DNA of 64,000 nt from Eledone cirrhosa (Eukaryota): positions 682,001 to 746,000 of the forward strand of contig OZ024764.1 of assembly GCA_964016885.1 (NCBI GenBank), written 5' to 3'. The position numbers were made by a program, and so were the translations under genes. Shown piece by piece: positions 640-62,775 of this stretch (within the stretch, counting starts at the first letter, position 1; every line of letters starts with the position of its first letter). The notes beneath the pieces are model-generated. The model did not search any database. It was not told the origin of the DNA and saw only the letters and a list, made by a program, of their open reading frames with translations.

Positions 640-3281
640 CAGTGTTGTTTGTTTGGGTGTTGTTCCACTCATTCTTTCTGTTTAGCTTTGGTCTTCTAAT
701 TTCTATTTCACTGGCCTCTCTGATTTGCCTATCTGCTGGGTCATTCCTATGTTTAGATATTATTCTAATTTCTATGTTGTCTAGCATGTTCGTATAGTAC
801 TGACCCGTTTTTTCGTCCTTTTAGTTCCCCCAAGTGTTGGTCTATCCTTTCACCTATGCTACGAGCTGTCTCACCTATGTATGTTGTTGTCATGTTTCTG
901 CAAGTACCCTCTGTACATCTTATGCTATAGACTACGTTTCTAGTTTTACAGTTTATCCGGGGGTTCACCTTACATATGATACATTTCCTATTGGTACAGT
1001 GGGTTTTCTTAAAAGGGTAGGTTTTGCTGATCAGGGATTTTATGGTGGTTCCTGGCTTTTCTACCACCTTTATTTTTAAGTGGGTCTTTCTCAGGGCCTT
1101 TCTACACTGGTTAGCTAATTTCCCTCCAGGGGTGCCGTCCACAAACATGACACTCTGATATCTCTGGTTGTCGTACCATGATGTGGCCTTCCCTATCTTA
1201 TGTCTAGCCCTATCTAAGCTATTCCATGATTTGCTCCTGTATAGTGGGCAAATTCCTTTCATGTCCAGTTCTATGAGGGTCTTATACTTTTCCATGGCTC
1301 CTTCGTATACTCTGACTCTGTCTCTTTGGTTGTAGCCAGAGAACTGCATGCGGTTGATGAAGTGTTGGATGTGTCTTTCCATTTCTGTTGGGTCGCACAT
1401 GCTGGACACATTCTTCATCACTCGTACCAAATCTGCGATCAGAATATTAAACTTAGCACTACTGGACATTGCTGAGTTTTTGAGTATCAGGTATTTGGAG
1501 GCCATAGGTTTAGCATAGTGTGAGTGGAGAATTTGGGCTCTCTCGTCTATAGTGTTAATCCAGAGTTCTGTGTCTAATACAGGTAGTCTATTGTTAGGGT
1601 GTTTGGAAGGGAAGTCGATAGTTACAGTTATACTCTGGTGTATGGAATTAGCTATCTGCTGGATGCTTTCCATCGTGCTACGTTCTAAATCAAACTTGTT
1701 AGTGCTCTCTAGTGGGGGTGTTCTTATAACTATATTGATATCGTCTACATAACGAGAGTACATGATGAGGTCTATGGAGCTTTCATTAGGGAGATCTTTA
1801 AGTCTCCTTTCCCACCTACCATGAAAAGGTTGGCAACATCACAAGCTATGCTGACGCCGATGGCTTTTCCCTCATTTTGGGTGTAGATTTTCTCATTGAA
1901 CTTGAATATGTGGCTCTTTAGGGTAGTTTTGATACTAGCCCCTATTGCATGTGCGACCATTTTTCTTACCTGATCAGTGTTTTGGGGGGTCCGTATAGCT
2001 TTGGTCCACCCAATCCACCTTCCTATGGGAGTCTTTTTTGCCATTGAGGTTATGGTGGGGGGGTCTACCTCTTATAGGTCTACTAGGGCAGAAACATCTA
2101 AGGTCATGGCTGTCTAGGTAGTCAGTGTCGTAGGTAAGTCTAAGTAGGAGGCCCAGTTCGTCTGTGTCGACGTCGCAGAACTCCACCTCACTCTCATTGA
2201 TCATCTCCACACATCTTTTCACAGCAAAATCAATGTTAATGGATGGGTACAGTGACACCACATCCATGCTGCCTATTATGCAGTTGGATAGGCTCCTGTT
2301 TTTGTTGCACTCACTGATTCTGCTGAGGAGGTCCTCTGTACTTTCACATACATCTGGGGACATCTTGATTATGGGGCGTATAACCATTGAGAGGAAGTAG
2401 GAGATCCTGTAGTTGTTAGCTATATTAGCTCCGCATACGGGTCTTGTTGGTGGTCCTGTTGTCGGGTCGTCGACTGTCTTGTGGTCTTTGCGGAGCCCAT
2501 AAAAGGGTGGTATGCCATTGTTAGACGCCTGGAAGTTGTTGGCAGTGCGTCTGCTTGGCTTTAGGATGTCAGTCCACATCATGTGAGCGTTGAGGATTTT
2601 TTCTCTCCCATCGTGTGTTTGTTGTGCAACTTCGCTCGTGTTGGTGATGTGGGGTTGCATAGCCTCGATGTAGTTCGGCATGTTATCTATTGACATCCTA
2701 CCAGACTTATCTGTGGGTAGACACACTACCTCACCATCCCTTGTGCGCTGCTTGAGGCTAACCAAGCCTTCTACAGGTTTTCTCCCAAGTTGTTGGGCCT
2801 CTGGTCTGCTCTGTCTCATAGTATACCTGTCTACTACTTGTCTAATCTTATTTCTAGCTATGGTGAACTGTGCCTCCGTCTCGTCATCTATTTGCTGTGG
2901 TATGCAAACTCTTTTATTAAAGGGTAACCTCGTAGAATAGATATTACCCATCTTATATGTTTTGTCAGCTGGGTTGAAAAATAGTTTCTCTAAGGGGTTG
3001 TCATTATATCTATCGTCATAGTTGTGTGTGTTGCTATTATTGTTATCATGGTGGTTGTTGTTGTTTCTATCATTAGCATTATTATTGTTATGATTGCTAG
3101 ATGTATTGTTGTTTACTTCACCGTTATTGTTGTTGTTGTTACTGTTATTTCTACCATTGTGGTTGTTACTATTATTATGTTTCTTGTTTTTGTTGATGTT
3201 GCTACATGTACTATTTCCATTATTACCACTGCGGTTATTGTTGTTGTTGTTCCCCAAGTATAACAATATCTGTTTCGACAC
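640..3281 (-). mobile_element. Penelope-like retroelement (Neptune/Poseidon-type) RT + GIY-YIG endonuclease, frameshifted
   Basis: ORFs 1974-3281, 1772-2044 and 765-1763 carry RT motifs (PTDKSG, GSMDVVSLYPSI, GKAIGVSIACDVANLFM, RYVDDI), a Cys-rich linker (CTNRKCIIC) and GIY-YIG (VVYSIRC...YIGETAR). The endonuclease C-terminus continues in another frame (DRQIREA...LNRKNEW) to ~640. The N-terminus is Asn-rich. Confidence 0.92.
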
Positions 3282-3747
3282 ACGATTTCATATAAAAAAC
3301 CTCGCTAAACTATATATATATAATTGGTTATGCACGAGTGCATTAATGTTTTCCAGGACACAGTGTTATGTACCGTGTAGTGGAATGTCAGCTTACAACA
3401 GAGTGGTGTTCAACGAAATGCAGAAAAAAGGTGTATATTCCAGTTTAGCTATATTCCGGGGCGTGTATAAAGAATTAAAAAGAACAGAAAGATGCAGTAA
3501 AAGAGATTTATTCGGTTCTTACGTACGTTTCAATAGACATCTATTTGCCTAGATCTCGCTACATCTATAATATTATATATTTAGTAGAGCATTCGATATC
3601 CAATGCACAATCGATCCCATATCATCAGAGATATGCGTTTATTAGTATTTTTAAGAAGGTATAAGGTAGCTTCAGTAATTTAACAATGTATTATCACAAA
3701 AAATTATAAAATTATTGTTACAGGATTAACAAAGACATAATAATATA

Positions 3748-3970
3748 TATTCCTGCCTAATTAACAAGTAATCAAAACACTATTAACAGTCAGGCAAAAT
3801 TAGCTCAGGGATATCCCGCGCTCGGATACTTTACACACACACACAGCAACACATAGGATTAGCACAGACACAATGGTATATTCCTGCCTAATTAACAAAC
3901 AATCGATTAACAATTGATGGTCAAGAAAATGTACTCAGGGATATCCCGCGCACGGATATTTACATACATA
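3748..3970. repeat. Two diverged ~130-bp direct repeats
   Basis: atattcctgcctaattaacaa...ctcagggatatcccgcgc(t/a)cggata occurs twice in tandem. Confidence 0.75.
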
Positions 3971-4006
3971 CAACAGGATGAACAGTACTGGTGACCGTGT
4001 GGGCCC

Positions 4007-4094
4007 GATATCCATTATGCGTATGTAGTCATCTGCATAGCTCCAGGCACGATATCCATTATGCGTATGTAGTCATCTGCATAGCTCCAGGCAC
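4007..4094. repeat. Perfect 2 x 44-bp tandem duplication
   Basis: gatatccattatgcgtatgtagtcatctgcatagctccaggcac starts at 4007 and again at 4051. Confidence 0.95.
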
Positions 4095-4099: not shown

Positions 4100-4822
4100 G
4101 TCTTGTTTAAAAGTTCATGGATCAACTGGGATTCACTATTCCTGCCACGGTTAGCTTTGCCTTTCATCTTTAGGAGCTCGATAAAATAAAGTACCAGTAA
4201 CACACTGTGGTCTATTAAAACGACTTTCCTTTCCCCCCCCTAAAAAACTGTAGGCCTCGTGCCGAAATCAGGAACCATGAGGGTCGGACGACATGCTTTG
4301 TAGCATAGTTACGCCCCTTTATGGTCTGAGTTCAAATCCTGTCGAGGTTAACTTTGCCTTTCATTCTTACGGGGTAATGTACTTGGATAATTTCTGGCCT
4401 TGTGCCAAAAGTAGAAACAATTATTATAAGAACTGTAGATTGGCAGAATCGGGAGAGCGTCCAACGTGTTTTGCGGCACAGAGTTACGTCCCTTTGCGTT
4501 CTGAGTTCAAATCCTGCTGAGGTTAGCTTTGCCTTTCATCCTAACAGGGGTCGATAAAATAAAGTACCAGCTGTGCCAGGTTTAGGACAAATGAGGCCCT
4601 GTACTAGTTAAATTATGAGGCCCTTTACTTGAGGCTCTGGAGGAAGCAAACACATTTTTTGGCAGGAAGATGGGTCACTCTGGACAACAGGGCCCGCTGC
4701 TTAAGCACACCTAAAGACTATGGTAAATCCGGAACTGAGTACTAGTAACGCACTGGGGGTCGATTTAATAGACTTTCCCCTGCCCCAAATTATTGGCCTT
4801 GTGCCCGATCTAGAAACAATTA
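4100..4822 (+). mobile_element. Three tandem, diverged tRNA-derived SINE copies (cephalopod-type)
   Basis: B-box GAGTTCAAATCC at 4328 and 4503 and A-box-like TGGCAGAATCGG at 4441. The core tta(a/g)ctttgcctttcat occurs three times, twice followed by cgataaaataaagtaccag. Followed by a CA-rich tract. Confidence 0.75.
4571..4737. mobile_element. hAT-type MITE inserted into the third SINE copy
   Basis: Imperfect TIRs ctgtgccaggttta / taaatccggaactg (10/14). 8-bp flanking duplication agtaccag (4563-4570) / agtactag (4738-4745). The SINE resumes after it. Confidence 0.7.
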
Positions 4823-4905: not shown

Positions 4906-5044
4906 TTCTCATATTTTTTAACTCCTTAACATTTCAAGCGAGTGAGAAAGAAAGTCTACCTCTGCGTATACGCATAGAGCTTAACTAGCTACCGTCACAT
5001 ATTTGGTAGGTTAGACGTGATCATTGCGATTCACATACGACATA

Positions 5045-6300
5045 CCATACCAATTCATCGAATATTTAATATTATCTCGTTTTAGGTCCCATAGTAGGCT
5101 AGATAGCGACGTTGAAGATTTTTTGTTTGGATCTGTGAAAGAATTTTTATGATTATTGAAGCGAAATTTAAATTCTGTCGAGGTGGAACCAACATATTTA
5201 AATGAATTTAAATTGTTATTTAACGGACAGTTAGATTTATTTCTACAGTATTTAATTGAATATTGTTTGGGTTATTATTGGTATTTTGGTTAGGTTTTAA
5301 ATTCCTATTATTAATTCTATTAATATTTTGTGCTAAATTTTTGGTGGAGGAGTAAGTTAATTTTATAGTGTGTTTATTAAAAATTGAGTAATATTTATGT
5401 GTTCTAGGGAAGCGTGTGTCAAAAGCTTTAAAGAATAGTTTAGCAATAGGGGTTTTAATATTTAGTGAGAAAGGGGGAGCAAACCATAATATATTTCTAG
5501 TTCTATTTCTTTTCTGGCTTTTAGAATTATTGTAATGTTTTCTATTATAGTTGTTAAAGTTGTTACCGTAATTAAAATTGTTGTTATATTGGTTAGTTTG
5601 CCTATTATTATCGATGTACATAATTTTATCACTATATCCTGCTCTAGCTAATGCTTCATTGTAATACTGCGCTTTTTCGTCGAAAATATTTTTATTAGAT
5701 GAAATTCTTGAACAGAGTTCACTATAGTATTTTTAACAGATCTGGGGTGATTAGAGTTAAAACTGACATAATTCAAGTTTTCATTTAGTTTGTGAAATGG
5801 ATAATGAAGGCATGTGTTGAGATTTAGTGTTACATCTAGGAAATTGACTATTCTATGGTTATTCTCTATTTCTATTTTTAGATTAAGGTAATTAAAAAAT
5901 TGTATAATTTGTTTTCTTTTTCTATTTAGTTCAGAGTTAATATTTTCAATAAGTAAAAGCATGTCATCACGATATAATCCTCCGGTTACACCAGGTATTT
6001 TTCTATGCAGCGAATTAATTATAAATAGGCCCACAAGGTCCGTTACCTGAGCTGAGTCAGATGATCCCATAGTAATGTCGAAATTATTATCTCTATCTGC
6101 CCTAGTCCATAGTTGGTTATTAAATTCTATCAATGTTTTCCTTGCCGATAATATAATGTGCATTTCATTGCTAGTTAGGTCTGTATGTTTGAATGCGTAA
6201 TTTAGTGCCTTATTTAGTAGATTAGGGGTAATAGATGAATAGTAATTAGCAATATCTAGTTGAATAAATTTATTATTATTGTTATATTTAATTTCTTTAA
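5045..6300 (-). mobile_element. Naiad-type Penelope-like element fragment A (RT C-half, linker, partial GIY-YIG)
   Basis: ORF 5648-6163 (DITMGSSDSAQ, GLYRDDML, NFLDVTL) and ORF 5220-5621 (RNILWFAPPFS...IFNKHTIKLTYS). Manual translation of 5220->5045 gives YVGSTSTEFKFRFNNHKNSF...LWDLK. Ends at a TTAA next to a piggyBac TIR. Confidence 0.9.
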
Positions 6301-8403
6301 CCCTTTAGCATTCACATTGAATTGTCAAATGTCATGTTCATCTATTCGCATTATTTTCACTTAATTATACTCAAGAGGGTTATCAATTTTATTTGTTTCT
6401 AATTACTTTAATTTTCTATGTGCAGACTTGAAATTTTGTCAGTAGACGTTTAAAGAACTATAATTTACAATTATATATTTTTACCTGATTTTTTTTTGTT
6501 AAATTTGACTTTTATGGGCAGGTAAAATTAATTAACAGGTGTAAAAGTAATAACTTTATGGATAAACACAAAAATTAAACTTTATCTGCCTTACCTGTTA
6601 GATTTGTTGCAAAAAAATCCAATAATGATCTAGATGCTGATTTCCATCAATTCTAGCAGTTTTCCGAACAGGTGAATTAATTAAAAATGCAGGTGTAATC
6701 AGTACAATGTTTTAGTCTTTCTCTACATTCCAGGCAAATATTTTCATTGAAAAAAATGTATAAAACCTTTTCACCAGTCAAAATAATATTGGCAATGTAC
6801 TCTTACACAATGTACAGTGTAAAATTACGTAACAGAATGTTCCCAATATATAAGTTCATTAACAGGTGTGATGCAGGTGTGTCACAGGTGAATGCAGGTG
6901 TTTTTGTATGTGTGCTAATATATTTTTAAAATAGTGTTTTCAATATTGTTAGACAATATTTCGATCGTGATACTGCCCAAAGCACCCTTTACATAAGGGC
7001 ACTTTGCAAAAGGAACACATAAATAGGGTTTGGATTGCGTAACCTTTAACAGTTTTTCTCTTTTGCAAAGAGCACAATCGGCAAACCTTCCTCCTACCAT
7101 CAATTCTCTCCACTTTATGAAAATCAATATTTTCTTTGTGGACCACTGCTAATTTTGATTTTTTCCCAGCTTTGTGTTTGCGAGAAGTATATCCCCCACG
7201 TAGCTGGGATGCAATGTCCACTCGAAATTTCATGTGGCAGTAGTCCTTTGGTGGTGGCGGATCCTTGTGGCTTTTAGTAAATACAATATAAGAATTCACA
7301 ATGGTTAAATTCACTAAAAACCACAAGATGTATCTCCACCATTTCTTTCCAGGGCGTCCAACTGGGTAATACGCGCAATATTGGTCGGATTTGTCAACCC
7401 CACCCATATATTTATTGTAGGAGAGGTTAACTAAAGGTCTACCCTCAGCCCCAACACCTGGTTGTTGGTTAGAACTCAGGAACAAAATTTGCCGTTTGTC
7501 TTTGAACACTGTGGCTAACATGTTCTCTTTTTGCATTTGGAGAATGTCTCCTCTGTTTTTTAGTTTCGCAACTTTTATTTCTTGGGGTAGCCCTTTCCGA
7601 TTGCTCATTATTGTGCCGCAGGTGTACGTATTTACAAGGGCAAGATCCTCTGCTAAAAGCACCGACGAAAAAAATGGTCAAAATAAATGTGTCTGTGTTG
7701 AAAGTGGAAGGGTTGAGTCAGCGACCACACAACATTGAAATTGTTTAATACCAAACATAATGTTTATGGTAAAAAACGCTTTCATTTCGGCAGGATCTGT
7801 CGGACGCCATAACAGATCGGGTTTTCCTCGATTAGAAATTTGTTGTTGTGCATAGCGATTTGTCTCTTCTGCCACAACTTCGAAGAAAGTTTGTGGTAGA
7901 AATAATAAAAAATAATCCAGAGCTTTAGCATCGGGTGGTAATGTGTGTTGTGGTCCAGAATTTTCATTAAAATCCGAAACATGTATTGGTGTTGTTTCTT
8001 TCAACCACGTTGGTGTTTTTTCACTGGTGTCAGATATCTCTTCGCTTTCACTTTCAAAGTGACTATCATCATCATCAGATATATCAGAAATAAATATATC
8101 TGATTCATTTGAAGATAAATCACTGATATTATCTTCTGTTTCTTTTTTATCTTGAATGTCGTAGGATGTAAAACCTTCAAAATCGTTGTCGCTGCTTTCG
8201 GAAGCCATGTTACAATTTCAAAGTTAAAAACACGTGTTATCGCAAGGTCTTTAACTATACTAAGAGTTAATTTTCGCGCGTAATGGCCTTATCTCGCTGT
8301 AATCTCGAATTGACGAGATTTTGATGATGTCAATGTTTATTTTTAGGAGATCTACGAGTGGTCTGAAATGTCGGTTTTTGTCGGTTTGAATAAATGAAAG
8401 GGG
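6301..8403 (-). mobile_element. piggyBac DNA transposon, internally deleted transposase, 3' TIR intact
   Basis: TTAA (6297-6300) followed by TIR ccctttagcattca. ORF 7678-8208 has the acidic N-terminus and ETNRYA. ORF 6949-7662 has YNKYMGGVDKSDQ, KKWWR and the C-terminal Cys-rich domain CRLC...CSFCKVPLC..CFGQYH. A deletion after GIKQF (~7737) removes the first catalytic Asp region. The 5' end is cut ~30 bp short of its TIR. Confidence 0.93.
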
Positions 8404-9088
8404 ATTAAGGTAATTTCTTTTTCTACTTAGTTCACAGCTATTATTTTCTATAAGTAAAAGCATGTCATCACGATATAATCTTCCGTTTACACCTGGAATT
8501 TTTTTATGTAGTGAATTAATTATAAATAGGCCCACAAGGTCCATTACCTGAGCTGAGTCTGATGATCCCATAGTTATGTCGAAATTATTATTTCTATCTG
8601 CCCTAGTCCGGAGTTGGTTATTAAAATCTATCAATGTTTTCCTTGCCGATAATATAATGTGCATTTCATTGCTAGTTAGGTCAGTATGTTTAAATGCGTA
8701 ATTTAGTGCCTTATTCAGTAGATTAGGAGTGATAGATGAATAGTAGTTAGCAATATCCAGCTGAATAAACTTATTACAGTTATATTTAATTTCTTTAAAC
8801 CAATCAATAACCTCACTAGTCCCTTTCTATAATTTTAAGTAAGATAAATTAGGTAAGTTTATAATTTGTTGTATTACCCTGTCTAGAATATTTTTGCTAA
8901 GTTTTCCCAGGTCAGATTTGGATGGTGCAATTAATCTGACTGGTAAATCATTTTCAAAGTTTCTTTTGTGATCCTTCATATTGATCTTGGGGTTCCTAGG
9001 CATGAAGGGTTGTGTTTTATTCTCAATGTCTAATTCATGCATTATACAAGATACATCTGTATTCAGTTTTTCAAGTTCGTCCTTACTA
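8403..9088 (-). mobile_element. Naiad-type Penelope-like element fragment B (second copy of the same family, RT N-half)
   Basis: 8403-8799 is closely similar to 5881-6300 (DITMGSSDSAQ, LYRDDML). It continues past the TTAA without a piggyBac into KDHKRNF...RLIAPSKSDLGKLSK (ORF 8827-9042). Confidence 0.9.
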
Positions 9089-9172
9089 TATATTAATATA
9101 TATATATTAATAAATTATTAAAAAAATAATGAATAAACAAAGAAACAGTTCCTTATATTAAACAAAAAAAGT

Positions 9173-9314
9173 TCATTATTTTACGATCGTTTCTAGGACA
9201 TATATGTGTTAGAATTAGTATGCATATTCTATAGATCTATGTACAATATTTATACAAACTATCAGAGGGAATATACATACCTTCACATATATATGCTGTC
9301 TTCAGAAATAATGA
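9173..9314 (-). ncRNA. Type I hammerhead ribozyme (Penelope-associated), long stem II
   Basis: The minus strand reads UCAUUAUUU-CUGAAGA-[stem II CAGCAUAUAUAUGUG ... CACAUAUAUGUCCUA]-GAAA-C-GAUC-G-UA/AAAUAAUGA. Stem I is a perfect 9 bp, the core is intact, stem III is minimal and palindromic, and the cleavage triplet is GUA. Stem II pairs at 13/15 positions but its core-proximal pair is C-A. Confidence 0.8.
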
Positions 9315-9439
9315 TGCTTGTTTATTGATAAGAACAAAGATTCAATACAATAGGTCTGTTTGGGAACAGGTTTTGAATAGACAAATGAAAAAGAGATTGA
9401 AATATATAAAAAAATCTATCAAGAAATATAGTTAGGTGT

Positions 9440-9530
9440 GTGTATATGTATGTAAATACGCTCACAGATGTGCATATATGTATGTAAATACGCTCACAGA
9501 TGTGCATATATGTGTATGCACATGTATACG
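9440..9530. repeat. 2 x 32-bp repeat in (TG/TA) microsatellite
   Basis: tatatgtatgtaaatacgctcacagatgtgca occurs twice in tandem. Confidence 0.85.
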
Positions 9531-9641
9531 TATAGTGAAAAAGTGTAAATCTAAAATTTAGGGCAAATGTATCTGTATGTCTGTAATCTACAGACAGAAT
9601 AGATACATCATAAGTATATGAATATGAAGGCGCGCGCATAA

Positions 9642-10434
9642 ACACGCCTCGTTTTGGCCATAATACTAGATATATAAGGGTCACCAAACCTTATATCAGT
9701 ACTCCAATAATTCCACAGTCGTGGAAATTGTTTAATACCAAACATAATGTTTATGGTAAAAAACGCTTTCATTTCGGCAGAATCTGTCGGACGCCATAAC
9801 AGATCGGGTTTTCCTCGATTAGAAATCTGTTGTTGTGCATAGCGATTTGTCTCTTCTACCACAACTTCGAAGAAAGTTTGTGGTAGAAATAAAAAAAAAT
9901 AATCCAGAGCTTTAGCATCGGGTGGTAATGTGTGTTGTGGTCCAGAATTTTCATTAAAATCCAAAACATGTATCGGTGTTGTTTCTTTCGACCATGTTGG
10001 TGTTTTTTCAATGGTGTCAGATATCTCTTCGCTTTCACTTTCAAAGTGACTATCATCATCATCAGATATATCAGAAATAAATATATCTGATTCATTTGAA
10101 GATAAATCACTGATATTATCTTCTGTTTCTTTGTTATCTTGAATGTCGTAGGATGTAAAACCTTCAAAATCGTTGTCGCTGCTTTCGGAAGCTATGTTAC
10201 AATTTCAAAGTTAAAAACACGTGTTATCACAAGGTCTTTAACTATACTAAGAGTTAATTTTCGCGCGTAAGGGCTTTATCTCGCTGTAATCTCGAATTGA
10301 CGAGATTTTGATGATGTCAATGTTTATTTTTAGAAGGAGATCTACGAGTGGTCTGAAATGTCGGTTTTTGTCGGTTTGAATAAATGAAAGGGGACATAAT
10401 TTTGTCGGTTTTTGTCGCTTTGAACGCTAAAGGG
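9642..10434 (-). mobile_element. piggyBac 5' fragment with intact 5' TIR
   Basis: Near-identical to 7737-8403 but continues GIKQFPRLWNYWSTD...ISSIMAKTR. Ends tgaacgctaaaggg + TTAA (10435-10438), 13/14 complementary to the TIR at 6301. Confidence 0.92.
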
Positions 10435-10519
10435 TTAAGAAAATTTAGAAATTATAAGGTGACACTAATATTGATTCATGGTGATATAAGGAATATATCA
10501 GGAATACAAGAAAATTTTA

Positions 10520-12160: not shown

Positions 12161-12693
12161 GTGTAAGTTGCGAAAAGGTTGGCAACGGCAGTGAAATATT
12201 CAAGTGAATAAAAAGGGCTGCTTTAAATTATTTACACGAATGAATAAAAAGGCTGCGTTAAATTCTTACGTCGGTCACCAGTGTGGTAAAATGTAATGTA
12301 TCCTAGTTGGATAGTTCATTGACATAGACGTGAGGGAAGGTCCCTCGTCTATTTACCATTTTGTGTTTGTGAGAATTATGACAAAGTGAGTGAGTGAGTG
12401 TGTGCGCAAACAAGACAATAACCACAACGAGAGTTAAATTCAACAAGTGTAAATAATGGTGATTTATTTATACTACAAATGGAACGTACCAAATGTTGAC
12501 GTGGTCAGTTGTGGTGACCATTCAAAAGTATTGTGGGGTTTATTGTTTGCTGTTCCCTTGGCTGCTTTCTGTGGCGTGTGATCAGTCTGCTTTCTAGTGG
12601 CTGTCTGTTTTCTCCTCGTGTTCTCAACCAGCGGGAGATAACTAGGGTTGTTCTATTATCCCGGCAAGAGGCGTGAGGCGTCTTACTACAAGT

Positions 12694-13388
12694 TCAAGGC
12701 GGTTGAGTTATCATAGGAATGTCAATCCAGTTACAGATCAGATGTGATTTCAGATGAGGACAACATCTGAAGATCTCGGTCTTTGAGTTCAGGCAAGCAG
12801 AAGTGGCTCTCAAGTTTAACAAAATCCTATATTTTTCTGTGGTACACAAAGAACAATTCTTTGTGCCTCTTTGGTACTCCCTCGAATGGTCTAAAATAGA
12901 CCAATCGATAGAGTACGGGATGTTATTATCCTTGAATTCCCACACCTTACTTGCAAGGGCCGTTGTTGTTGTTGGTTTATCGGAGTGCTTAAAAGAAGCG
13001 ACATGTGAGTAAAACCTGGTTTTAAACCTGTCCTGGGTCATGCCGACATATCGCTCACTCCTGGCTGGCTGGTTGTTGATAACTGGCGTTATCTTAGCCT
13101 CATAAACAACAGATTTTGTGTTACATTTACCCTGCAATGGGCATTCATCCGGCTTCCTGCAACTGCATCCTGGATTTGTTCTCGTATGATTTGAACTAGT
13201 GATCTTGGACTTCATGGATGGGCAACAAGAGTAACTGATCTTAACTACGTTCCTATTAAATATCTTATAATATCTATGATTAGGAGGAAAATGTTTATCT
13301 AAGAGTTCAAGGAATTTCCTTCCTACATTAGTTTTGACAGTTAGAGAGAAGGGGTGTGTGAACCAAATAATTTTCCTTTTCCTGTTAT
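12694..13388 (-). mobile_element. Naiad-type Penelope-like element C: linker + complete GIY-YIG endonuclease
   Basis: ORF 12694-13215: CSCRKPDECPLQGKC...VVYEAKI...YVGMT..FKTRFYSH...CSLCTTEK...LNSKTEIFRCCPH. The upstream frame reads VKTNVGRKFLELLDKHF...IFNRNVVKISYSC. Confidence 0.92.
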
Positions 13389-13401
13389 GGGGGGGGGGGG
13401 G

Positions 13402-14650
13402 AATTTGTTCTGTAAAACCGCTGTTTTTAAGGGCTTTATTATAATAAGGGCGGCTTTATTAAAAATGGATTGTCTCTCTGTTTCCCATTTCTTTACACAG
13501 TCCTTTGCATTATTATTAAATTCTGCGAGATCTTTTAAGCTGCACTGGTTGGGTAGTAGGGGGAAAACAAGGCAAATATCACCTGTTGATGGAGAATCCC
13601 CGCTAGCCATTGCTGCTCCCCTACTGGCGACGGCCCTATATGAGGTTCCCCCATTTCAGTATCTTGTGTCGCTACTCCGCTATCTTGTGATTCAAATAAA
13701 TCGTTGTTTGACTGATCACATATAAATTCTTCGTTTTTAGATGATTGTTCTTTTTGTAGCAAGCAATGAAGGCATTAGTGTCATCTTTGCTCTAATTGCG
13801 ATGTTATTTGTACAATCTATAAGCTTGTTATCGGCTTGTTCAAAATGTCTGCCACTGTACTCAGTCTTGCAATATTCATCTAAATTGTTAACAGGTTTTT
13901 TTTCTAAATCTTTAGTATAAGGAGCACAAGATGGAGTCGAAGAAGGCAGATTAGTTCTGTGGGACAGTTGTCGGCAGACACGATAAGTCGGGTTTGTTTT
14001 CATTATCCTTTTCATCCTCCAAGATGGCGGCTACTAGCCAGGAGGTCTTTATCTTGAGTGGTACATTTTTGTATGGTAACCTTGTTACCATTGGCGACAG
14101 TGATGATGCTGGACAGAGTAAGTTACCAGGTAATCTTTACTGTTCTTTCTTCTGTCCTAATATTTCGGGACCCAAAATTCCTTTCGTCAGAGTTTAAGGA
14201 ACTTTCAGAGAAGAATGTTCCAGTTTCTTCTCTTTCGGATTAAATTTTGATTTAAATTTCTGAAGTTGTTTTCAAGAAAAAACGTTTTAAAGTGTCGGTA
14301 AAATGTTAGTTTATTAATCTCATTTGGTTCCTCGTTCTTTTGTCCTTGGTTCAGGTTTGAAAAAAATGTTTTGTTTCGCAGAGGTTTTGAAGATTTTCGC
14401 TGATTTCAGAAGTTGTGTATTTGGTACCAATTTCCTCGTTGTTTTCTTGGGTTCAAATGTTGAGTTTGTTGAAGATTGTTAACAGGTTTGTGTTAATTTT
14501 CTTGAGTTCTTTCAGTATCTCTTCATTTACGGTAGAACTTGATCCAGGGAACCGGCGAAGGCGTCTTGCATCTCCATCACTCGGATATCTATCTGACTGC
14601 TTGCCGGATTATTCGAAATTTCTAAAGAAAGCTAAAAAGTAGAAAAGAGG
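13402..14650 (-). mobile_element. Broken coding region, probably the N-terminal part of Naiad element C (RT deleted)
   Basis: Consecutive minus-strand reading-frame pieces (13341-13610, 13535-13762, 13737-14015) with charged low-complexity composition, joined to the linker at a G13 run. No diagnostic motif. Confidence 0.4.
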
Positions 14651-14689
14651 AAGAGAGATTCTAGGCCCTAACGCGCTAAAAAAAAAAAC

Positions 14690-15590
14690 CTGAGGCAATC
14701 ATCCCCCGGACCCGGCAAGGGTTCATAAAGGAGAAAAGGGGATTAGACGACAGGCATCCACAGTGGCGGGGACCCGGAAGCATCCAGAGACCCCCATACC
14801 GCACGCGAGCCGACAACTCGAAACCAGCTGGTTTCTATTCCAGCATCTCTAGCGTAGCTAGCATCGCACAACGGCACAGAAGCCTCCTGAACACATCACC
14901 CACGATCCCCAGAGCAGATAATGTCTCTTCAGCCGCGTTCGACCAAGCACCACAAGCTCCGATAGGAGAGCCATGAACCAGGACTCTCCCAGCTGTTTCA
15001 TTTTCCAGCAGCGCAGTCAAGGGAAGGTACACGTACCTTCACCGCCGCGGCGTCATTCAAAACGCTTCCCTGCTCGTATCTCACCGTGACATCCACCACC
15101 ACCGTCATACCCCATCTCATTACCAGATCCGGAATGAGCCTCGCATTGTTCACACGATAAGAGGGCCCCCATCCCACCCTCCAACCATGGCGTATACACT
15201 CGTCCGCAATCAGTTGGCACAGCTGGTCGGTCCTGGCCAAGCGCCTTCTCTTCAGAAGAGGGCACTGGCCACTGATACGGGCGATTGTCTCGGCAACCAT
15301 TCTACAGGTTTTAGGTCTGCGACCACCTCTCGCCAGGCATTCCCGGGTGGGAAACGTATTGGTTCGCAATTTAAGAGAGCTTAAAAAGGTCCCCTCAGAA
15401 ACCACACCCGGGCGGAGCAGCCAATCGTTGCCGATTCGGTGGCTCCTAAACGACCTCGCACACGCCCCCTGGACAGGCTGAGACGCTCAGGCCTCAGCGT
15501 ATTCCCGTCGAAGGTCAGGCGCGTACGTGGTCTCGCCCAGCGGAACCGGTGGCTGACCATAGCGCACCGCTATCACCCTTGTCGAAAGCT
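14690..15590 (-). mobile_element. R2-like non-LTR retrotransposon 3' end (zinc knuckle + restriction-like endonuclease + 3' UTR)
   Basis: ORF 14998-15405: KLRTNTFPTR, degenerate CCHC (CR..ETIARISGQC), RTD for the RHD motif, IPDLV...VVDVTV and K..VY. Continues in ORF 14835-15032 (GSPIGACGAW). GC-rich relative to its flanks. Confidence 0.85.
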
Positions 15591-27215: not shown

Positions 27216-27224
27216 TCAGACAGA

Positions 27225-46533: not shown

Positions 46534-46715
46534 TCTTTTTTTTTTTAAATTTATTTTTAATATTTAAATAACTGGCGGTTAGAAAAAAATATTCCTATGA
46601 AATTTTAATCATACCATTAGGTGTGAATAAGGAAATATTTTTTTATTGTCAAAACAAATGTTCAAAAGTTAAACTTCAATTTTTTGAATTATTTCCAATT
46701 TTTTCATGAAATTGA

Positions 46716-49700: not shown

Positions 49701-52700
49701 TGAGGTGGATGTTGTCGTGAATGGATGTGGACGGGATAGCGCATGACTGCGTGATGGTGGTGGTGATGTTTGTGTTGTGGTTGGTGGTGGTGGTGTTTGT
49801 GTTGTGGTTGGTGGTGTCTGTATTTTGTTTGCTGTGTGTGGTATTAGTGTATTTTTTGGAGGTGGGTGGTGTTGGTGTACTGTTTGTGGTGGGTGTGGGC
49901 AATAGTCCTTTTTGGAGGATACGTTTCGAGCATTTAGCCTTAACATGTCCCCTTTCCGTGCATAAATAGCATGCTGGTCTTCTCCCCTCTACAATTATAT
50001 CTATTGGGGTGAGGTCATCCAGCCAGATGCGATCCGGGATTTGTGCCACTCTTTCGGGCCTCATTTGGACTAGTAGGTCGAGGCCCATTCCCAGGAACGC
50101 ATCTCCAGATGCCTTCCCCATTGACAGCACTGTGTCCTCGCCCATGTCTATGAAGCTAGCAATAGCCCACCAGAAGTCCATTGTGGGCAGCATTGTCTGT
50201 ATTTTTACTCTCTGTGTTCTTCTACCCATGTAGGAGGGATAGAAGCTGTATGTTGTTGATGAGAGTGGGCTTAGGGAAAGCTTCTGCGCCGTTTCCTTGT
50301 CTTTTGTTAAGACCGAAATGCTGCCATAGAGTCGGTCCTTTCATATGAAGAGAATATTCTTCATATAGTCTTTTAGGACCAACTCTATCTCCATTTGGCT
50401 GGGCTGTGCTGGCTTTCTTGTCTGGTTCAGTATAGTTCTGAAGAGAACTGTGTTCTCTGTTCTTTCTTTCTTGAATTCTGGGGGGGGGGGGGGGGGGGGG
50501 TTTATGGGCAGTTAACCTTAACGTGTCCCCTTTCCGTGCATAAATAGCATGCTGGTCTTCTCCCCTCTACAATTATATCTATTGCTTAGTTAAAAATACC
50601 TGGGTGCTGGCAGCAGATGGATCTCCTCACCATGGGAGGCCGCTTCTTCCAGAGGAACTGGAAGAGCATGCGCTCCATGATGGTGAGCGTTTCCTTGGGG
50701 CAAGGCACGACGGTCAGGCGGTAGTAGATGACGGACGCTATGTAAGTGTTCGTCACCTCCGCCTGACCTTTCAGTGATAGTTTGCACTTGGCCCACTTCT
50801 GGGTCAGCGCAAACACCCTGCTCGTCACCTCGCCCCAATTCTTCTCCACCTGGAGGTCCGGTCTGAGCAGCTTCACCGAGCCCTTCGTCCACCGCCCGAC
50901 GACACCGTCTAACGGCATCGGTTTGCCCCTCCACGTTCCGAGTTGCAAACCGACTGACTTGTCCCGGTTCAGCCTAGCCCCCGTCAGCCTTTCGTATTCC
51001 TCCAGTAGGGTGGCGATCGCCCCGATTTCCGAGGCGTCCGCCACCATTACTGTTACGTCGTCGGCATAGGCCGAGACCGCTTTGTGCAACCCGGTTCCAG
51101 GGGTATGCCCCGCAGCAACTCCAACTTCCGCAGCAGTGGTTCGAGAGCTAATACGTACAGAAGGGAGGAGAGGGGGCACCCCTGCCTGATGGACCGGGTG
51201 ATTTGAAACGGCTCCGAGAGGTAGCCGTTTACTTTAACCCTAGAGCAGGCGTTGCCACTGTGCATGGCAGAAATCCAGCCCCTGAAAACGGGTCCGAAGC
51301 CCGCCGCCACTAGCACCACATCCAGGTAACCATGGTCGACCCTATCGAACGCCTTAGATTGATCCAAGTTGATCAGGGCCCCACCAAAGCCGGGTTCGTT
51401 CCCAACCCTCTCTATGATGTATCGCATGAGGTGGATGTTGTCGTGAATGGATCTGGACGGGATAGCGCATGACTGCGTGATGGTGGTGGTGATGTTTGTG
51501 TTGTGGTTGGCGGTGGTGGTGTTTGTGTTGTGCTTGTGGTTGGTGGTGGTGGTGTTTGTGTTGTGCTTGTGGTTGGTGGTGTCTATTTTGTTTGCTGTGT
51601 GTGGTATTAGTGTATTTTTTGGAGGTGGGTGGTGTTGGTGTACTGTTTGTGGTGGGTGTGGGCAATAGTCCTTTTTGGAGGATACGTTTCGAGCAGTTAG
51701 CCTTAACATGTCCCCTCTCCATGCATAAATAGCATGCTGGTCTTCTCCCCTCTACAATTATATCTATTGGGGTGAGGTCATCCAGCCAGATGCGATCCGG
51801 GATTTGTGCCACTCTTTCGGGCCTCATTTGGACTAGTAGGTCGAGGCCCATTCCCAGGAACGCATCTCCAGATGCCTTCCCCATTGACAGCACTGTGTCC
51901 TCGCCCATGTCTATGAAGCTAGCAATAGCCCACCAGAAGTCCATTGTGGGCAGCATTGTCTGTATTTTTACTCTCTGTGTTCTTCTACCCATGTAGGAGG
52001 GATAGAAGCTGTATGTTGTTGATGAGAGTGGGCTTCGGGAAAGCTCCTGCGCCGTTTCCTTGTCTTTTGTTAAGACCGAAATGCTGCCATAGAGTCGGTC
52101 CTTTCTTATGAAGAGAATATTCTTCATATAGTCTTTTAGGACCAACTCTATCTCCATTTGGCTGGGCTGTGCTGGCTTTCTTGTTTGGTTTAATATTGTT
52201 CTGAAGAGAACTGTGCTCTCTGTTCTCGCTTTCTTGAATTCTGGGGGGAGTTAATGGAAAACATTCCGTTCTCCCCCAAGACAATGTGTTTTTTTGCTTC
52301 GGCCAGTTTTTCTCTGGCGGCAGTTAAGTCTATTGGTGTATATGTTATGGACTGTTTTGTTTTCTGGGCGAACGTTGCCTTGTTGTTATTTGTGTTCTTA
52401 TTTTCTGTTTGTTTGTTTTCTGTTTGCTCGTTTTCCGTAACATTTGTTTTTTCATTTTCCTTGTTTGTTTCGTTGTCTAGTTTTGTTGTATCTATTTCTT
52501 TTTGTTCTTCAGACTTGGGGGGCGTGGCAGAGCTAATGGCAGACATGTCTGCCATCTTTTCCGCCATGCTGCCAAGAAAGAGATTTTACAGCAAAATAGA
52601 TATTTATTTTACCCCCTAAAAAGGGGGTAAATGTAAAAATGTTTCCCTAAATAACAGGGGTAAGTGTTTCAAATATGTTGCACTGAAAAAATTCTCTGGT

Positions 52701-52768
52701 ACTTACTATAGTAAGGGTAAATTCCGATGGAATAGCGGAGCCGATGTGAAGCGTGTCTTACTCTATCA
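46716..52768 (-). mobile_element. Tx1 element rearranged into three ~1.72-kb tandem units (ORF1 C-half fused to RT core), with 5' UTR at the right end
   Basis: ORF ends at 47144, 48859 and 50586 (spacing 1715 and 1727). ORF1 N-terminus 52190-52567; 5' UTR 52568-52768. Confidence 0.93.
47144..48514 (-). CDS. 456-aa chimeric ORF: Tx1 ORF1 C-half (CCHC knuckle) fused in frame to RT core; second open copy at 48859-50229
   Basis: CYLCTERGHVKANC, then a Thr/Asn linker, then QSCAIP, LDQSKAFDRVDH, RQGCPLS, AYADDVTV, LSLKGR. No endonuclease. Expression unknown. Confidence 0.5.
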   Translation of the reverse strand: MGRRTQRVKIQTMLPTMDFWWAIASFIDMGEDTVLSMGKASGDAFLGMGLDLLVQMRPERVAQIPDRIWLDDLTPIDIIVEGRRPACYLCTERGHVKANCSKRILQKGLLPTPTTNSTPTPPTSKKYTNTTHSKQNTDTTNHNTNTTTTNHNTNITTTITQSCAIPSTSIHDNIHLMRYIIERVGNEPGFGGALINLDQSKAFDRVDHGYLDVVLVAAGFGPVFRGWISAMHSGNACSRVKVNGYLSELFQITRSIRQGCPLSSLLYVLALEPLLRKLELLRGIPLEPGLHKAVSAYADDVTVMVADASEIGAIATLLEEYERLTGARLNRDKSVGLQLGTWRGKPMPLDGVVGRWTKGSVKLLRPDLQVEKNWGEVTSRVFALTQKWAKCKLSLKGRAEVTNTYIASVIYYRLTVVPCPKETLTIMERMLFQFLWKKRPPMVRRSICCQHPGIFN

Positions 52769-52831
52769 AGATAGACAGACAGACAGACAGAAAGTTAGAT
52801 AGACATCAAGATAGATAGACAGACAGATAGA

Positions 52832-52867
<36 letters not shown>

Positions 52868-53137
52868 AAGTTAGATAGACAGACAGACAGACAGAAAGTT
52901 AGATAGACAGACAGACAGATAGAAAATTAGATAGACAGACAGACAGACAGAAAGTTAGATAGACAGATAGACAGACAGACAGAAAGTTAGATAGACAGAC
53001 AGAAAGTTAGATAGACAGACAGAAAGTTAGATAGACATCAAGATTGATAGATAGACAGACAGAAAGTTAGATAGACATCAAGATAGATAGATAGACAGAC
53101 AGACAGAAAGTTAGACAGACAGACAGATAGATAGATA
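52769..53137. repeat. Compound (GACA)n/(GATA)n microsatellite with recurring GAAAGTTA interruption
   Basis: Repeats of gacagacagaaagttagata and gacatcaagata. The same motif occurs at ~30554, 33646, 38212, 41994, 54478-54673 and 55139-55260. Confidence 0.95.
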
Positions 53138-54477
53138 TATTTCTTTATTTACCATAAAGGCATAAAAAGAAGGGACAAATACAAAGGGGGAGTTTACATA
53201 CAATCGAGTAAAAAGGGTATAAAATGAAAATAATCGAAAATAACCGCAAAAGGGAGGTGATGTGATGGGGGTTGCACACACCCCCGAAAAAGTGTGCAAT
53301 CCTTTACTTCTTTACTTACAGGATGGTATACAGAGAAGGCCCATTTACACGAGCCATTCTCGCTACTATCACCCACCTTTCATAAAACTGCCGGTGGCCA
53401 AGCACCTCTCTCTCCATTCTTATCCTTCTTCCGAAGTGATATCGGAAGAAGTAGACCAGACTATGGCCAGAGAGGAAGTTGCCTGACCTCAGACCTCATT
53501 CAGCCAGATGCGATCCGGGATTTGTGCCACTCTTTCGGGCCTCATTTGGACTAGTAGGTCGAGGCCCATTCCCAGAAACGCATCTCCAGATGCCTTCCCC
53601 ATTGACAGCACTGTGTCCTCGCCCATGTCTATGAAGCTAGCAATAGCCCACCAGAAGTCCATTGTGGACAGCATTGTTTGACTCTGTGTTCTTCTACCCA
53701 TGTAGGAGGGATAGATGCTGTATGTTGTTGATGAGAGTGGGCTTAGGGAAAGCTTCTGCGCCGTTTCCTTGTCTTTTGTTAAGACCGAAATGCTGCCATA
53801 GAGTAGGTCCTTTCTTATGAAGAGAATATTCTTCATATAGTCTTTTAGGACCCACTCTATCTCCATTTGGCTGGGCTGTGCTGGCTTTCTTGTTTGGTTT
53901 AATATTGTTCTGAAGAGAACTGTGCTCTCTGTTCTCGCTTTCTTGAATTCTGGGGGGAGTTAATGGAAAACATTCCGTTCTCCCCCAAGACAATGTGTTT
54001 TTTTGCTTCGGCCAGTTTTTCTCTGGCGGCAGTTAAGTCTATTGGTGTATATGTTATGGACTGTTTTGTTTTCTGGGCGAACGTTGCCTTGTTGTTATTT
54101 GTGTTCTTATTTTCTGTTTGTTTGTTTTCCGTTTGCTCGTTTTTCGTAACATTTGTTTTTTCATTTTCCTTGTTTGTTTCGTTGTCTAGTTTTGTTGTAT
54201 CTATTTCTTTTTGTTCTTCAGACTTGGGGGGCGTGGCAGAGCTAATGGCAGACATGTCTGCCATCTTTTCCGCCATGCTGCCAAGAAAGAGATTTTACAG
54301 CAAAATAGATATTTATTTTACCCCCTAAAAAGGGGGTAAATGTAAAAATGTTTCCCTAAATAACAGGGGTAAGTGTTTCAAATATGTTGCACTGAAAAAA
54401 TTCTCTGGTACTTACTATAGTAAGGGTAAATTCCGATGGAATAGCGGAGCCGATGTGAAGCGTGTCTTACTCTATCA
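53138..54477 (-). mobile_element. Tx1 both-ends deletion derivative (5' UTR + ORF1 N-half joined to last ~360 bp)
   Basis: 53497-54477 duplicates ~51778-52768 (offset 1709). The 3' piece matches 54674-55033. Confidence 0.9.
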
Positions 54478-54572
54478 AGATAGACAGACAGACAGACAGA
54501 AAGTTAGATAGACAGACAGAAAGTTAGACAGACAGACAGACAGAAAGTTAGACAGACAGACAGACAGAAAGT

Positions 54573-54604
<32 letters not shown>

Positions 54605-54673
54605 AAGTTAGACAGACAGACAGAAAGTTAGATAGACATCAAGATAGATAGATAGACAGACAGATAGATAGAT

Positions 54674-55138
54674 ATATTTCTCTATTTACCATAAAGGCAT
54701 AAAAAGAAGGGACAAATACAAAGGGGGAGTTTACATACAATCGAGTAAAAAGGGTATAAAATGAAAATAATCGAAAATAACCGCAAAAGGGAGGGGACGT
54801 GATGGGGGTTGCACACACGCCCGAAAAAGTGTGCACTCCTTTACTTCTTTACTTACAGGATGGTATACAGAGAAGGCCCATTTACACGAGCCATTCTCGC
54901 TACTATCACCCACCTTTCATAAAACTGCCGGTGGCCAAGCACCTCTCTCTCCATTCTTATCCTTCTTCCGAAGTGATATCGGAAGAAGTAGACCAGACTA
55001 TGGCCAGAGAGGAAGTTGCCTGACCTCAGACCTTTCAATCGTGTCCACCAAACAACCTCTTTCAACATGGCTATTACGCACAGAAAAACCGCCTTTGCTT
55101 CCTTTGTGAAGAGGGGAGGCGGTTTGATTGTCATCACG
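54674..55138 (-). mobile_element. 5'-truncated Tx1 copy flanked on both sides by GATA/GACA microsatellite
   Basis: TIKPPPLFTKEAKAVFLCVIAM...FYERW plus 3' UTR. The truncation point runs directly into (GACA)n. Confidence 0.9.
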
Positions 55139-55260
55139 GACAGACAGACAGACAGAAAGTTAGATAGACAGACAGACAGAAAGTTAGATAGACAGAAAGT
55201 TAGACAGACAGACAGACAGAAAGTTAGATAGACAGCTAGATAGATAGACAGACAGACAGA

Positions 55261-60800: not shown

Positions 60801-60819
60801 CAGAAAGAGAGATACAAGA

Positions 60820-61770
60820 TATATTTCTATTTATTGCCACTAGGGCGCAAAAGAAGGGGACAAATACAAGGGGGTGAGTTTACACAAAAAGGCGAGTAAA
60901 GAAAACAAGTAACAAATATAAAATTAACAGTAAAGTCCTCAATAGGGAGGAGGCGTTTTTGGGGGTCGCACACACCCCCGAAAAAAGTGTGCAACCCTTC
61001 TCAGGAGCACAGAGAGGGGGTGCTCCCTTGTTCCTTCATCTTTTCCACCTACAGGCTGATGTAGAGAGAAGGTCCATTCACACGGGCCATTCTCGCCACT
61101 TTCACCCATCTTTCATAAAAATGACTGGGGTAGAGCACCTCTCTCTCCATCCTGATCCTTCTTCCGAAATGGTATCAGAAGAAACGGACCAGTTGTTGGC
61201 CAGAGAGAAAGGTGTCTGACCTCAGTCCTTTCAGACGCGTCCACCATACAACCTCTTTCGCCATGGCTATTACGCACAGAAACACCGCCTCTCCTTCGTT
61301 TTTGAAGGGGGGAGGCGGCTTGATCGTTACAATAGACTCGGTGGTCAACTGGATCGGTCCCACCCTTGACAGCAGTCGTTCGACATAGCCCCACAGATCG
61401 GCTACGCCCGAGCAGTGTACCAATGCGTGTGCAACGGTTTCCTCGTCGCACACGCACCTGGGATAGATCTTTTTGGCGAGGTCCCTACCTGGGCGCCCGT
61501 GTCTGTAGAGCTTTTCTCGAACGGGTAGAGCTCCTCGGTAGCACTGCCAGGCCAGGGACTTCTGGGAGTTGTCCATAGGTCCCGAGCTGAATGTCCTACC
61601 GAACAGGCTGGCCAGTTCGTCTTCCTCCATGTCTAGGGCTTCTCCGAGGGCGTCTTCGCACCTGCTGCGTACCAGCCCTCTATGCTCCACAACTGGCCTT
61701 ATTTGGGTCAGAACTTCGATGCTCGTTCCACTGAACACGTCGACGGATGCCTTCCCTATTAAAATTAGGT
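60820..61770 (-). mobile_element. Tx1 3' end (CTD + 3' UTR) joined to an ~85-bp ORF1 piece
   Basis: ORF 61175-61738 runs from FSGTSIEVLTQIRP (ORF1) into RGLVRSRCEDALGE...ETVAHALVHC. Confidence 0.9.
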
Positions 61771-62000
61771 TGTAATATCAAGGTCTTCGCCTGCATCACC
61801 GATGATTATCGCTAATTGATGAAACATGTCATAACAATCTCTTGACACTCGACTTTTCCATGCTTCTAGCTTTCGTTTCTGTCCGTCGATCTTGTCTGCC
61901 ATTGTAAAACACGAAGCCATCCTTCCCTGCATGGAGGGGTTGAGATCATTAAAGATGGCAAAGATATCAGCCAAATAAGCCAGCTTGGCTAGCCAATCCA
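61771..62000 (-). mobile_element. hAT (Charlie/Buster-type) transposase fragment
   Basis: WLAKLAYLADIFAIFNDLNPSMQG...KRKLEAW is the conserved LAYLxDIFxxLNxLNxxLQG block. Confidence 0.88.
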
Positions 62001-62775
62001 CATCATCATCATCATCATCAGTGGCAGTCTCAGGAGGTGAAGCTTAATGCACCGGGGAGTTATGTCTAATCACTGGTGACGTCTGCTGTGACTGTGCAGG
62101 CCGATGCATGAGTGACAGTCCTTGTTGCACTTGGTGTAGATATATGTAGAACCCTCGGTTGTTGATATGTCTGCGATGTGCTTTATCCGGTCCCTTTTTT
62201 TCTGCTGCAATTGATCTCTTTTCACATCTGCATCCGTGATGCCCTTGTCGACAGTCTTAAACAGGCAGGGGCAACCTTTTTCAAGCAGTGAGCTGCATAG
62301 GATGTGGCCCATCATATGATTCAATTTTGGAATTAGGAGTGCCATTCAAAACGCCAGACGGGCCGCGTGTGGCTTGAGGGCTGTGGACTGCCTGGTCTAA
62401 CGCCAGGTCCTGCGTCTCCCCCCAGGAGGGATGTTGCAGGCTTTCATGTTTCTCTAGAAGTAGGAGAGTCTAGTTACTGGCAATGTTGGCTCCAGACTGG
62501 GCATGTTGGTGGTCCTGTCAGCCAGTATCTGTTGTGTGGTCTTTAACATACATAGGGGTTGCATTGACGAACATTACACTCTGGTATTTATTTCTATCAT
62601 ACCATGAGTTGATTTTATTTGCCTTATTCCTGATCCTTTCGATCCTGTTCCAAAATGTGCTCCTGTACAGGGGCACTCATTGTGAAGGGCCGTCCACGTT
62701 CCTGTGCCAGTGCGCTGCCAACAGGACTGGTTTTAAATAGAATAAGATAGAGTTGACACTGACGCAGCCCTTGCG
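62001..62775 (-). mobile_element. RTE-clade LINE 3' end with (ATG)n tail
   Basis: C-terminal CNKDCHSCIGLHSHSRRH zinc finger; (CAT)6+ tail at 62001-62020 on the plus strand. Confidence 0.85.
62262..62394. mobile_element. Small hAT-type MITE inside the RTE
   Basis: TIR caggcag/ctgcctg. Flanks gtcttaaa / gtctaacg resemble a decayed 8-bp TSD. Internal ggccgcgtgtggc motif. Confidence 0.55.

Follow-up and report, generated by a model that had tools for sequence, protein, structure and literature searches.

A 163-kb one-strand block of transposon and virus fragments behind FKBP6 in Eledone cirrhosa: a candidate read-through piRNA cluster

Why should some sixty kilobases of DNA carry fragments of many unrelated transposable elements (TEs) on one strand only? 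The question is raised by a stretch of 64,000 nucleotides of the Eledone cirrhosa genome (3.0 Gb; assembly GCA_964016885.1, contig OZ024764.1, here C25, positions 682,001–746,000), hereafter the window, whose coordinates equal the C25 position minus 682,000, with negative numbers lying to its left. A sequence-only reading had proposed that TE pieces of about nine independent lineages, all coding on the minus strand over ~62 kb, make up a flamenco-like master locus for PIWI-interacting RNAs (piRNAs). Our findings place the window as the right-hand part of a block of ~163 kb (−100,800 to +62,700) that starts directly behind the host gene FKBP6, and favour, with a probability of roughly 0.7, a read-through ("downstream-of-gene") uni-strand piRNA cluster.

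The polarity of the window is complete by every measure applied. Among its open reading frames (ORFs) of at least 85 amino acids (aa), 25 of the 124 on the minus strand match TE-type Pfam families (GIY-YIG, DDE_Tnp_1_7, RVT_1, zf-RVT, PIF1, Helitron_like_N and others), and none of the 97 on the plus strand has any Pfam match. Self-BLAST of the window returned 177 same-strand high-scoring segment pairs versus 0 on opposite strands, and a tblastn search, its library of 55 TE ORFs drawn mostly from the block itself, covered 32,886 bp of the minus strand and 0 bp of the plus strand between positions 1 and 62,800; the proposal that all coding TE pieces in this span lie on the minus strand is thereby borne out. 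The same holds further left, where 28 of 91 minus-strand ORFs in 100 kb match Pfam versus 0 of 46 on the plus strand (a scan of 137 of 175 ORFs, 38 duplicates from a triplication being excluded), and library cover is 55,836 bp minus versus 1,494 bp plus. The leftward reach extends to C25:581,864 (−100,136; loci L030 and L001–L010), some 100 kb beyond the size first assumed, while the right boundary lies near 62.7–63.5 kb, just where it had been placed. Each 10-kb bin from −100 kb to +60 kb holds 3.3–7.9 kb of minus-strand cover, and matches are sparse and of mixed strand beyond either side. Over C25:581,184–744,700, TE-protein cover amounts to 1,494 bp plus and 88,938 bp minus (98% of TE and virus protein matches on the minus strand), compared with 2,694 and 5,778 bp right of the block, 339 and 903 bp in the FKBP6 gene body, and 3,063 and 1,179 bp behind AKAP1, a gene farther upstream. 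As a fraction of sequence, cover reaches 0.55 in the block (0.23 without self hits) versus 0.04–0.08 in neighbouring genes and flanks. Dense TE fragments almost all on one strand over tens of kilobases, as expected of a uni-strand cluster, are present.

How many independent events does this polarity represent? Counted as class runs, which are only roughly independent of one another, 62 of 64 over the block are minus; with duplicates removed 48 of 50; and with Tx1 also removed 42 of 44, spread over 11 classes and including a 41-aa "mariner" match at 58,846 that may be a library artefact. For 42 of 44 the binomial p is ~1e-10 at 0.5, 3e-5 at an assumed bias of 70% and 0.004 at 80%. The two opposite-strand exceptions are Penelope-like pieces at −85,622 and −48,756. 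Gypsy contributes 6 of the 50 de-duplicated runs, contrary to the idea that the locus targets other elements rather than gypsy long terminal repeat retrotransposons, and the bias is present in all classes. Co-orientation of separate lineages thus survives de-duplication; the window itself contains fewer independent events than are apparent, since 17.3 kb of it arose as later copies through internal duplication (≥90% identity), with much of 27–55 kb duplicated. The strand bias is genuine, and the block is confirmed to be larger than 62 kb.

The left edge supplies what the sequence-only reading had to assume, namely a direction of transcription. A scan of unique flank ORFs recovered two FKBP exons on the plus strand, and the gene is complete, with 13 ordered coding exons on the plus strand at C25:550,944–581,184 and its stop at −100,816; the best named match of the protein is FKBP6-like from Octopus sinensis (82%). 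The first antisense element of the block, a Merlin with both ends present, begins 680 bp after this stop, and block elements are antisense to FKBP6. Could the block be an intron of a plus-strand gene, as had been named as a possible objection? Coding exons do not flank it on both sides: every FKBP6 exon through the stop lies to the left, and the right-flank ORFs tested, in a scan of low sensitivity, had no host Pfam match. An AKAP1-like KH/Tudor gene (L040:1314–5453; C25:451–488 kb; best named match Octopus sinensis, 41%), whose first coding exon is very long and of low complexity, precedes FKBP6 on the plus strand. AKAP1 was considered as host and rejected: the last exon found for it, reaching aa 1133 of 1157, ends at 487.8 kb, which leaves ~94 kb up to the block, and TE matches downstream of it fall on both strands. 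As the FKBP6 coding exons and those found for AKAP1 lie left of it, neither gene has the block as a coding intron. FKBP6 is listed as the counterpart, in mouse, of Shutdown, a piRNA co-chaperone (PMC4269861).

Two virus-derived inserts also follow the polarity: the parvovirus-like capsid fragment of table 1, which the earlier inventory had missed, and a densovirus-like insert at −89,581 to −87,603 (L002:419–2397; Parvo_NS1 E 1e-18, phospholipase A2 [PLA2] region E 2e-12). An NS1 search of the genome gave 73 matches at ~34 loci, and among the ~33 others we took five with clustered same-strand matches. All five are one-way, one of them leakily. Across 180 kb the tblastn library covers 0 bp on the opposite strand, and 42 of 43 Pfam-matching ORFs lie on the strand of the insert (150 of 158 ORFs scanned, the 8 dropped all being on the majority strand), the exception belonging to a non-TE repeat family. 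A host gene ending on the upstream side was then predicted, and three of the four loci examined there (all but C3) begin ~2–12 kb behind the last coding exon of a host gene, with TEs antisense to it. At C25:7.9 Mb the gene is JADE (plus), and the stop of a long last exon, probably JADE's own, stands ~12 kb before the first minus-strand element. On C18 (15.04–15.09 Mb) it is FAN1 (minus), whose last nuclease exon ends ~2 kb before plus-strand elements. On C12 (8.97–9.09 Mb) it is NAF1 (plus), where minus-strand elements set in ~3 kb past a proline-rich exon taken, from its position, to be the last of the gene; an Atlas search with this exon gave no usable match, the identity of NAF1 coming from upstream exons. 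A start directly behind an intact host gene, with TEs antisense, is therefore found at FKBP6, JADE, FAN1 and NAF1. Further NS1 clusters that are candidate one-way blocks occur on C841 (all plus) and at C7:5.23 Mb, C23:3.3 Mb and C26:9.27 Mb.

The cargo matches young, dispersed TE families, with copies elsewhere at 88–99% (piggyBac), 94% (Tx1) and 94–98% (hAT), and the elements of the block arrived by ordinary transposition. TTAA sites, inverted ends and differing flanks characterise three piggyBacs, two of this block and one on C18, marking three independent insertions in two blocks, and all three follow the polarity of their block. TTAA being palindromic, this co-orientation suggests selection after insertion.

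We propose that RNA polymerase II, having initiated at the FKBP6 promoter, would pass the gene's 3′ end and transcribe up to ~163 kb of the plus strand. Elements would enter by ordinary insertion routes; antisense insertions would be retained, the transcript then giving rise to primary piRNAs that target densovirus-like viruses and families still active, and sense insertions would mostly be purged, with deletions and tandem duplications producing a dense mosaic of coding fragments. In this scheme read-through, piRNA output and selection are modelled on mosquito core clusters and mammalian piRNA clusters of the downstream-of-gene type (piC-DoGs). A plus-strand, TE-antisense piRNA precursor, as first proposed, stays the best explanation, its direction now backed by FKBP6 0.7 kb upstream; "master locus" finds no support, given at least five more one-way blocks. 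The block behind FKBP6 is best read as one of several such clusters and not as a master locus in the manner of flamenco, driven by a promoter of its own.

Several observations weigh against this proposal, which is read from the layout of the DNA. The block-derived library inflates block cover, and removing self hits lowers it to 36,789 bp minus versus 1,494 bp plus. The first AATAAA lies 1.1 kb behind the FKBP6 stop, and this signal is not depleted on the plus strand of the left part (105 plus versus 98 minus; 41 versus 69 in the window), so that read-through would need to override many signals. The additional loci were not chosen blind (5 of ~33 other NS1 loci examined); no host gene was identified in 34 kb upstream of the C27 block, a span whose last 8 kb were read by eye only; on C3, 58.19–58.25 Mb of the block contains five insertions on the opposite strand, two of them piggyBac, and the C12 block has two. 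Controls are also few: of eight regions, which are no genome-wide null, four carry TEs on both strands and four on one strand only but with at most two TE classes. TE cover comes close to 0.3 in three of them, and density cannot by itself mark a cluster on large chromosomes. Finally, introns of AKAP1 also lean antisense (306 bp plus versus 2,448 bp minus), as do those of FAN1. As a possible trace of germline transcription, 102 polarised substitutions in the block were flat (A>G 10 versus T>C 14), in a comparison that is underpowered. Scarcity of microsatellites and short interspersed nuclear elements (SINEs) was tried as a cluster mark and dropped, large-chromosome controls being equally poor in both.

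The antisense lean of neighbouring introns leads to an alternative that we consider unlikely, namely that a long transcribed tail (an extended 3′ untranslated region, a non-coding last intron or a long non-coding RNA) acquires its orientation bias passively, losing sense TEs because they truncate the transcript, and gives rise to no piRNAs. A non-coding exon past the block is conceivable, given that the flank scan caught just 2 of the 13 FKBP6 exons. Yet every coding exon lies left of the block, the 98% bias over 11 classes beats even an assumed 80% bias, and the excess of TE and viral coding cover over neighbouring genes is left unexplained. We also hold it unlikely that the block is a uni-strand cluster with a promoter of its own, as in flamenco proper, and merely sited behind FKBP6. 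Flamenco does lie downstream of a gene, DIP1, and has its own promoter (PMC4269861, in excerpt), and poly(A) signals stand 1–2.4 kb behind the FKBP6 stop; but the 1-kb gap before the first Tx1 piece holds common repeats only and has no match to other blocks among 40 candidates scored for a shared promoter, and four blocks behind four different host genes, antisense every time, form the pattern expected of read-through, which the layout fits better than a flamenco-type promoter. Improbable, in our judgement, is a mechanistic polarity in which target-specific Tx1 arrays, nested insertion and tandem duplication amplify a few co-oriented founders. Tx1 head-to-tail arrays do occur across the genome, one control on C7 included, and Tx1 accordingly carries little weight for polarity; duplication, which accounts for 17.3 kb in the window and for a 10.4-kb unit left of it, points the same way. 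The bias nonetheless outlasts the removal of Tx1 and duplicates, TTAA-flanked piggyBacs, Merlin, mariner, hAT, Helitrons and viral pieces share no common polar target, and such a process does not predict a link to the direction of the host gene. Assembly artefact or foreign DNA is very improbable, for although block composition differs from the flanks (fewer microsatellites and SINEs) and a 99.9% triplication could be an assembly error, neither boundary has N gaps, the families are native with 94–99% copies genome-wide, large-chromosome controls show the same scarcity, and single-copy pieces recur in short-read contigs from three sequencing runs that behave as genomic DNA from one sample, possibly the same sample as the assembly.

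How does a read-through cluster behind FKBP6 compare with known systems? The comparisons that follow draw on excerpts of the cited papers. Mosquito core piRNA clusters begin downstream of genes and capture viral inserts in antisense orientation (bioRxiv 10.1101/2022.08.22.504762; PMC7161354). Like these, and like the 143-kb Aedes endogenous viral element cluster 38, the Eledone block stands directly behind a host gene, runs one way for more than 100 kb, is one of several per genome, and combines antisense TEs with non-retroviral viral inserts, in which the mosquito clusters are rich. It differs in that read-through and piRNAs have been shown in mosquitoes, the present case being one of DNA arrangement, and in that its inserts are of single-stranded DNA densovirus-like type, its cargo is mainly Tx1, Penelope and Helitron, and its host gene is itself a piRNA factor. 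The downstream-of-gene model is described for mammals (PMC11615739), where piC-DoGs such as those of Zim2 and TMEM181 likewise pack antisense TE fragments densely just downstream of an intact gene, with read-through that can pass 100 kb; mammalian cargo is L1 and endogenous retroviruses (ERVs), whereas the class mix here is far wider and the host a mollusc. Drosophila flamenco and flam-like loci share with the block an array of TE fragments that run one way and exceeds 100 kb, and selection for antisense insertions has been proposed there (PMC10643416, PMC4269861). Flam has its own promoter and a bias from gypsy alone; at least 11 classes are biased here with gypsy a minority, so that the bias is not driven by gypsy or ERV elements in the manner of flam-like loci (PMC10643416). 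Among molluscs, clusters of the slugs Arion vulgaris and Deroceras laeve are mostly uni-strand, with ~20 top clusters giving 90% of piRNAs and a TE-antisense example (PMC11615739, PMC12506671). They resemble the block in being molluscan, uni-strand and TE-antisense; in these excerpts they have no reported link to upstream genes or viral inserts, and slugs are not cephalopods. Published work further describes molluscan clusters in which gypsy and DNA transposons abound, as well as piRNAs in somatic tissue, an octopus included (PMC6128900, PMC12479628); small-RNA data from arms of O. bimaculoides are available (PMC12479628). A search of the open-access literature gave nothing on point for cephalopod piRNA clusters, cephalopod densoviral inserts or a cluster behind FKBP6.

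Uni-strand TE-antisense clusters are already documented in slugs; the block offers an unusually strong DNA case, a recurring gene-end rule and an intriguing host gene. If the proposal is true, mosquitoes, mammals and a mollusc would share one way of making piRNA clusters, by read-through past the ends of host genes, suggesting an old or repeatedly found solution. Cephalopod biology, where activity of long interspersed nuclear elements (LINEs) in the brain is an open topic, would gain named, mappable defence loci, and a DNA-only search rule would follow: a one-way TE block behind a gene end, with viral inserts as markers. A cluster under the promoter of a piRNA biogenesis gene would also make a feedback link directly testable. 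More tentatively, and with the odds rather against it, octopods might store transposon and virus memory in read-through clusters behind ordinary genes across the genome, with a large one wired to FKBP6/Shutdown such that one unit gives both a piRNA-loading co-chaperone and a 160-kb precursor, a coupling or feedback, and with densovirus-like inserts giving heritable antiviral piRNAs. Four Piwi-domain genes are present in the genome, Ago and Piwi not being told apart among them.

Table 1. Elements of the one-way block and its right edge, in window coordinates (RT, reverse transcriptase)
Feature	Position	Strand	Remarks
One-way block, right part	1–62,676	−	Continues left of the window; polarity from Pfam and tblastn
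Left-part classes: Merlin, Tx1, Penelope-like, Helitron, gypsy, piggyBac, Tigger/pogo, mariner, RTE, densovirus-like insert (two Penelope-like pieces on the opposite strand excepted)		−	
Penelope-like element	658–2,579	−	357-aa ORF; 90% DNA copy elsewhere on C25; "Neptune" is the label of the sequence-only reading
tRNA-type SINE pieces	4,140–4,575	+	A/B-box-like motifs; copies in flanks
Penelope-like (Naiad-type) element	5,029–9,093	−	Interrupted by piggyBac, locally duplicated; weak GIY-YIG match (E 0.003)
Young piggyBac insertion	6,294–10,441	−	TTAA at both ends, inverted repeats, DDE_Tnp_1_7; internally deleted and rearranged; 88–99% copies genome-wide
Second Penelope-like (Naiad-type) fragment	12,691–13,455	−	93% DNA copy in left flank
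Parvovirus-like capsid fragment (PLA2 region)	13,598–13,759	−	51% to the viral insert of the left part (E 6e-10); short-read runs X1–X3 place it on a single-copy contig
R2-like non-LTR element, 3′ part	14,648–15,574	−	78% at DNA level to RT-bearing C18 copies
SINE, TGA-repeat tail	15,881–16,135	+	
Tx1-type LINE fragment mosaic, several families	16,436–61,771	−	RVT_1, zf-RVT, Exo_endo_phos; holds a 98% 6.1-kb duplication (27,115–33,221 / 34,744–40,882) and a 1.7-kb tandem unit (46,713–52,257)
Helitron (Rep/helicase, Ulp1-like protease)	42,251–46,563	−	Partial duplicates at 27,115–27,967 and 33,904–35,596
SINE within Helitron	43,557–43,706	+	
hAT transposase fragment	61,768–62,004	−	94–98% copies elsewhere; 98% relative with Dimer_Tnp_hAT, E 0.0004
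RTE-type LINE 3′ end	62,010–62,260	−	From translation; 72–84% copies elsewhere
Final Penelope-like piece, right end of block	62,554–62,676	−	
First opposite-strand RT piece past the block	63,531–64,000	+	Duplicated at 66,737; 68% to minus-strand piece at −29,284, in reverse orientation

The elements first listed for the window were broadly the right ones. Pfam supports piggyBac, Tx1-type LINE domains, Helitron, the Penelope-like GIY-YIG (weakly) and, through a relative, hAT; an Atlas search placed one Penelope-like ORF beside RVT_1/GIY-YIG clusters. The subtype labels Neptune, Naiad, R2-like, Tx1 and RTE are our assumption, taken from motifs and homology among copies. The SINEs had been called plus-strand only, which is true of the three window loci; one piece in the left part is minus, and the numbers are too small for a call on bias. 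Rfam and ARAGORN gave no match in the window, and Pfam no credible match among 73 short gap ORFs. Nor is "none intact" a general rule, as some one-way blocks have long uninterrupted TE ORFs: a 2,134-aa Helitron (L049:356–6757), a 547-aa piggyBac (L052:1558–3198), a 985-aa gypsy pol (L053:7044–9998) and a 646-aa Penelope-like ORF (L010:7889–9826).

Young Tx1-type head-to-tail arrays with a 5.7-kb period were seen at C2:103.44–103.47 Mb, C3:358.75 Mb and C2:402.74 Mb. In the window, GACA/GATA repeats border Tx1 pieces at 52,768–55,260 and may be a target site, and the 1.7-kb tandem unit includes 493-aa open frames (47,147–48,625 and 48,862–50,340) in which an internal deletion fuses Tx1 ORF1 to the RT region. 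The left part holds the 10.4-kb unit three times at 99.9% (L002:7710 to L005:8885; −82,290 to −51,115), either a very recent tandem expansion or an assembly error. Among changes between block duplicates, 23 of 49 C>T/G>A fall at CpG, which suggests methylation of the block. Ankyrin-repeat ORF pieces occur on the TE strand of two one-way blocks (L001:8933–9286, minus; L041:3134–7739, minus, tandem) and may stem from a host gene, TE cargo or a virus. Four densovirus-like inserts (L002:419–2397, L044:2346–5645, L045:1890–4900 and L058:5335–9315) invert the gene order usual in parvoviruses, their PLA2-bearing capsid ORF standing upstream of NS1 and on its strand. Relatives of their NS1 are only unnamed or uncultured-densovirus sequences, and their capsid ORF matches the capsid of Penaeus monodon metallodensovirus (E 8e-9).

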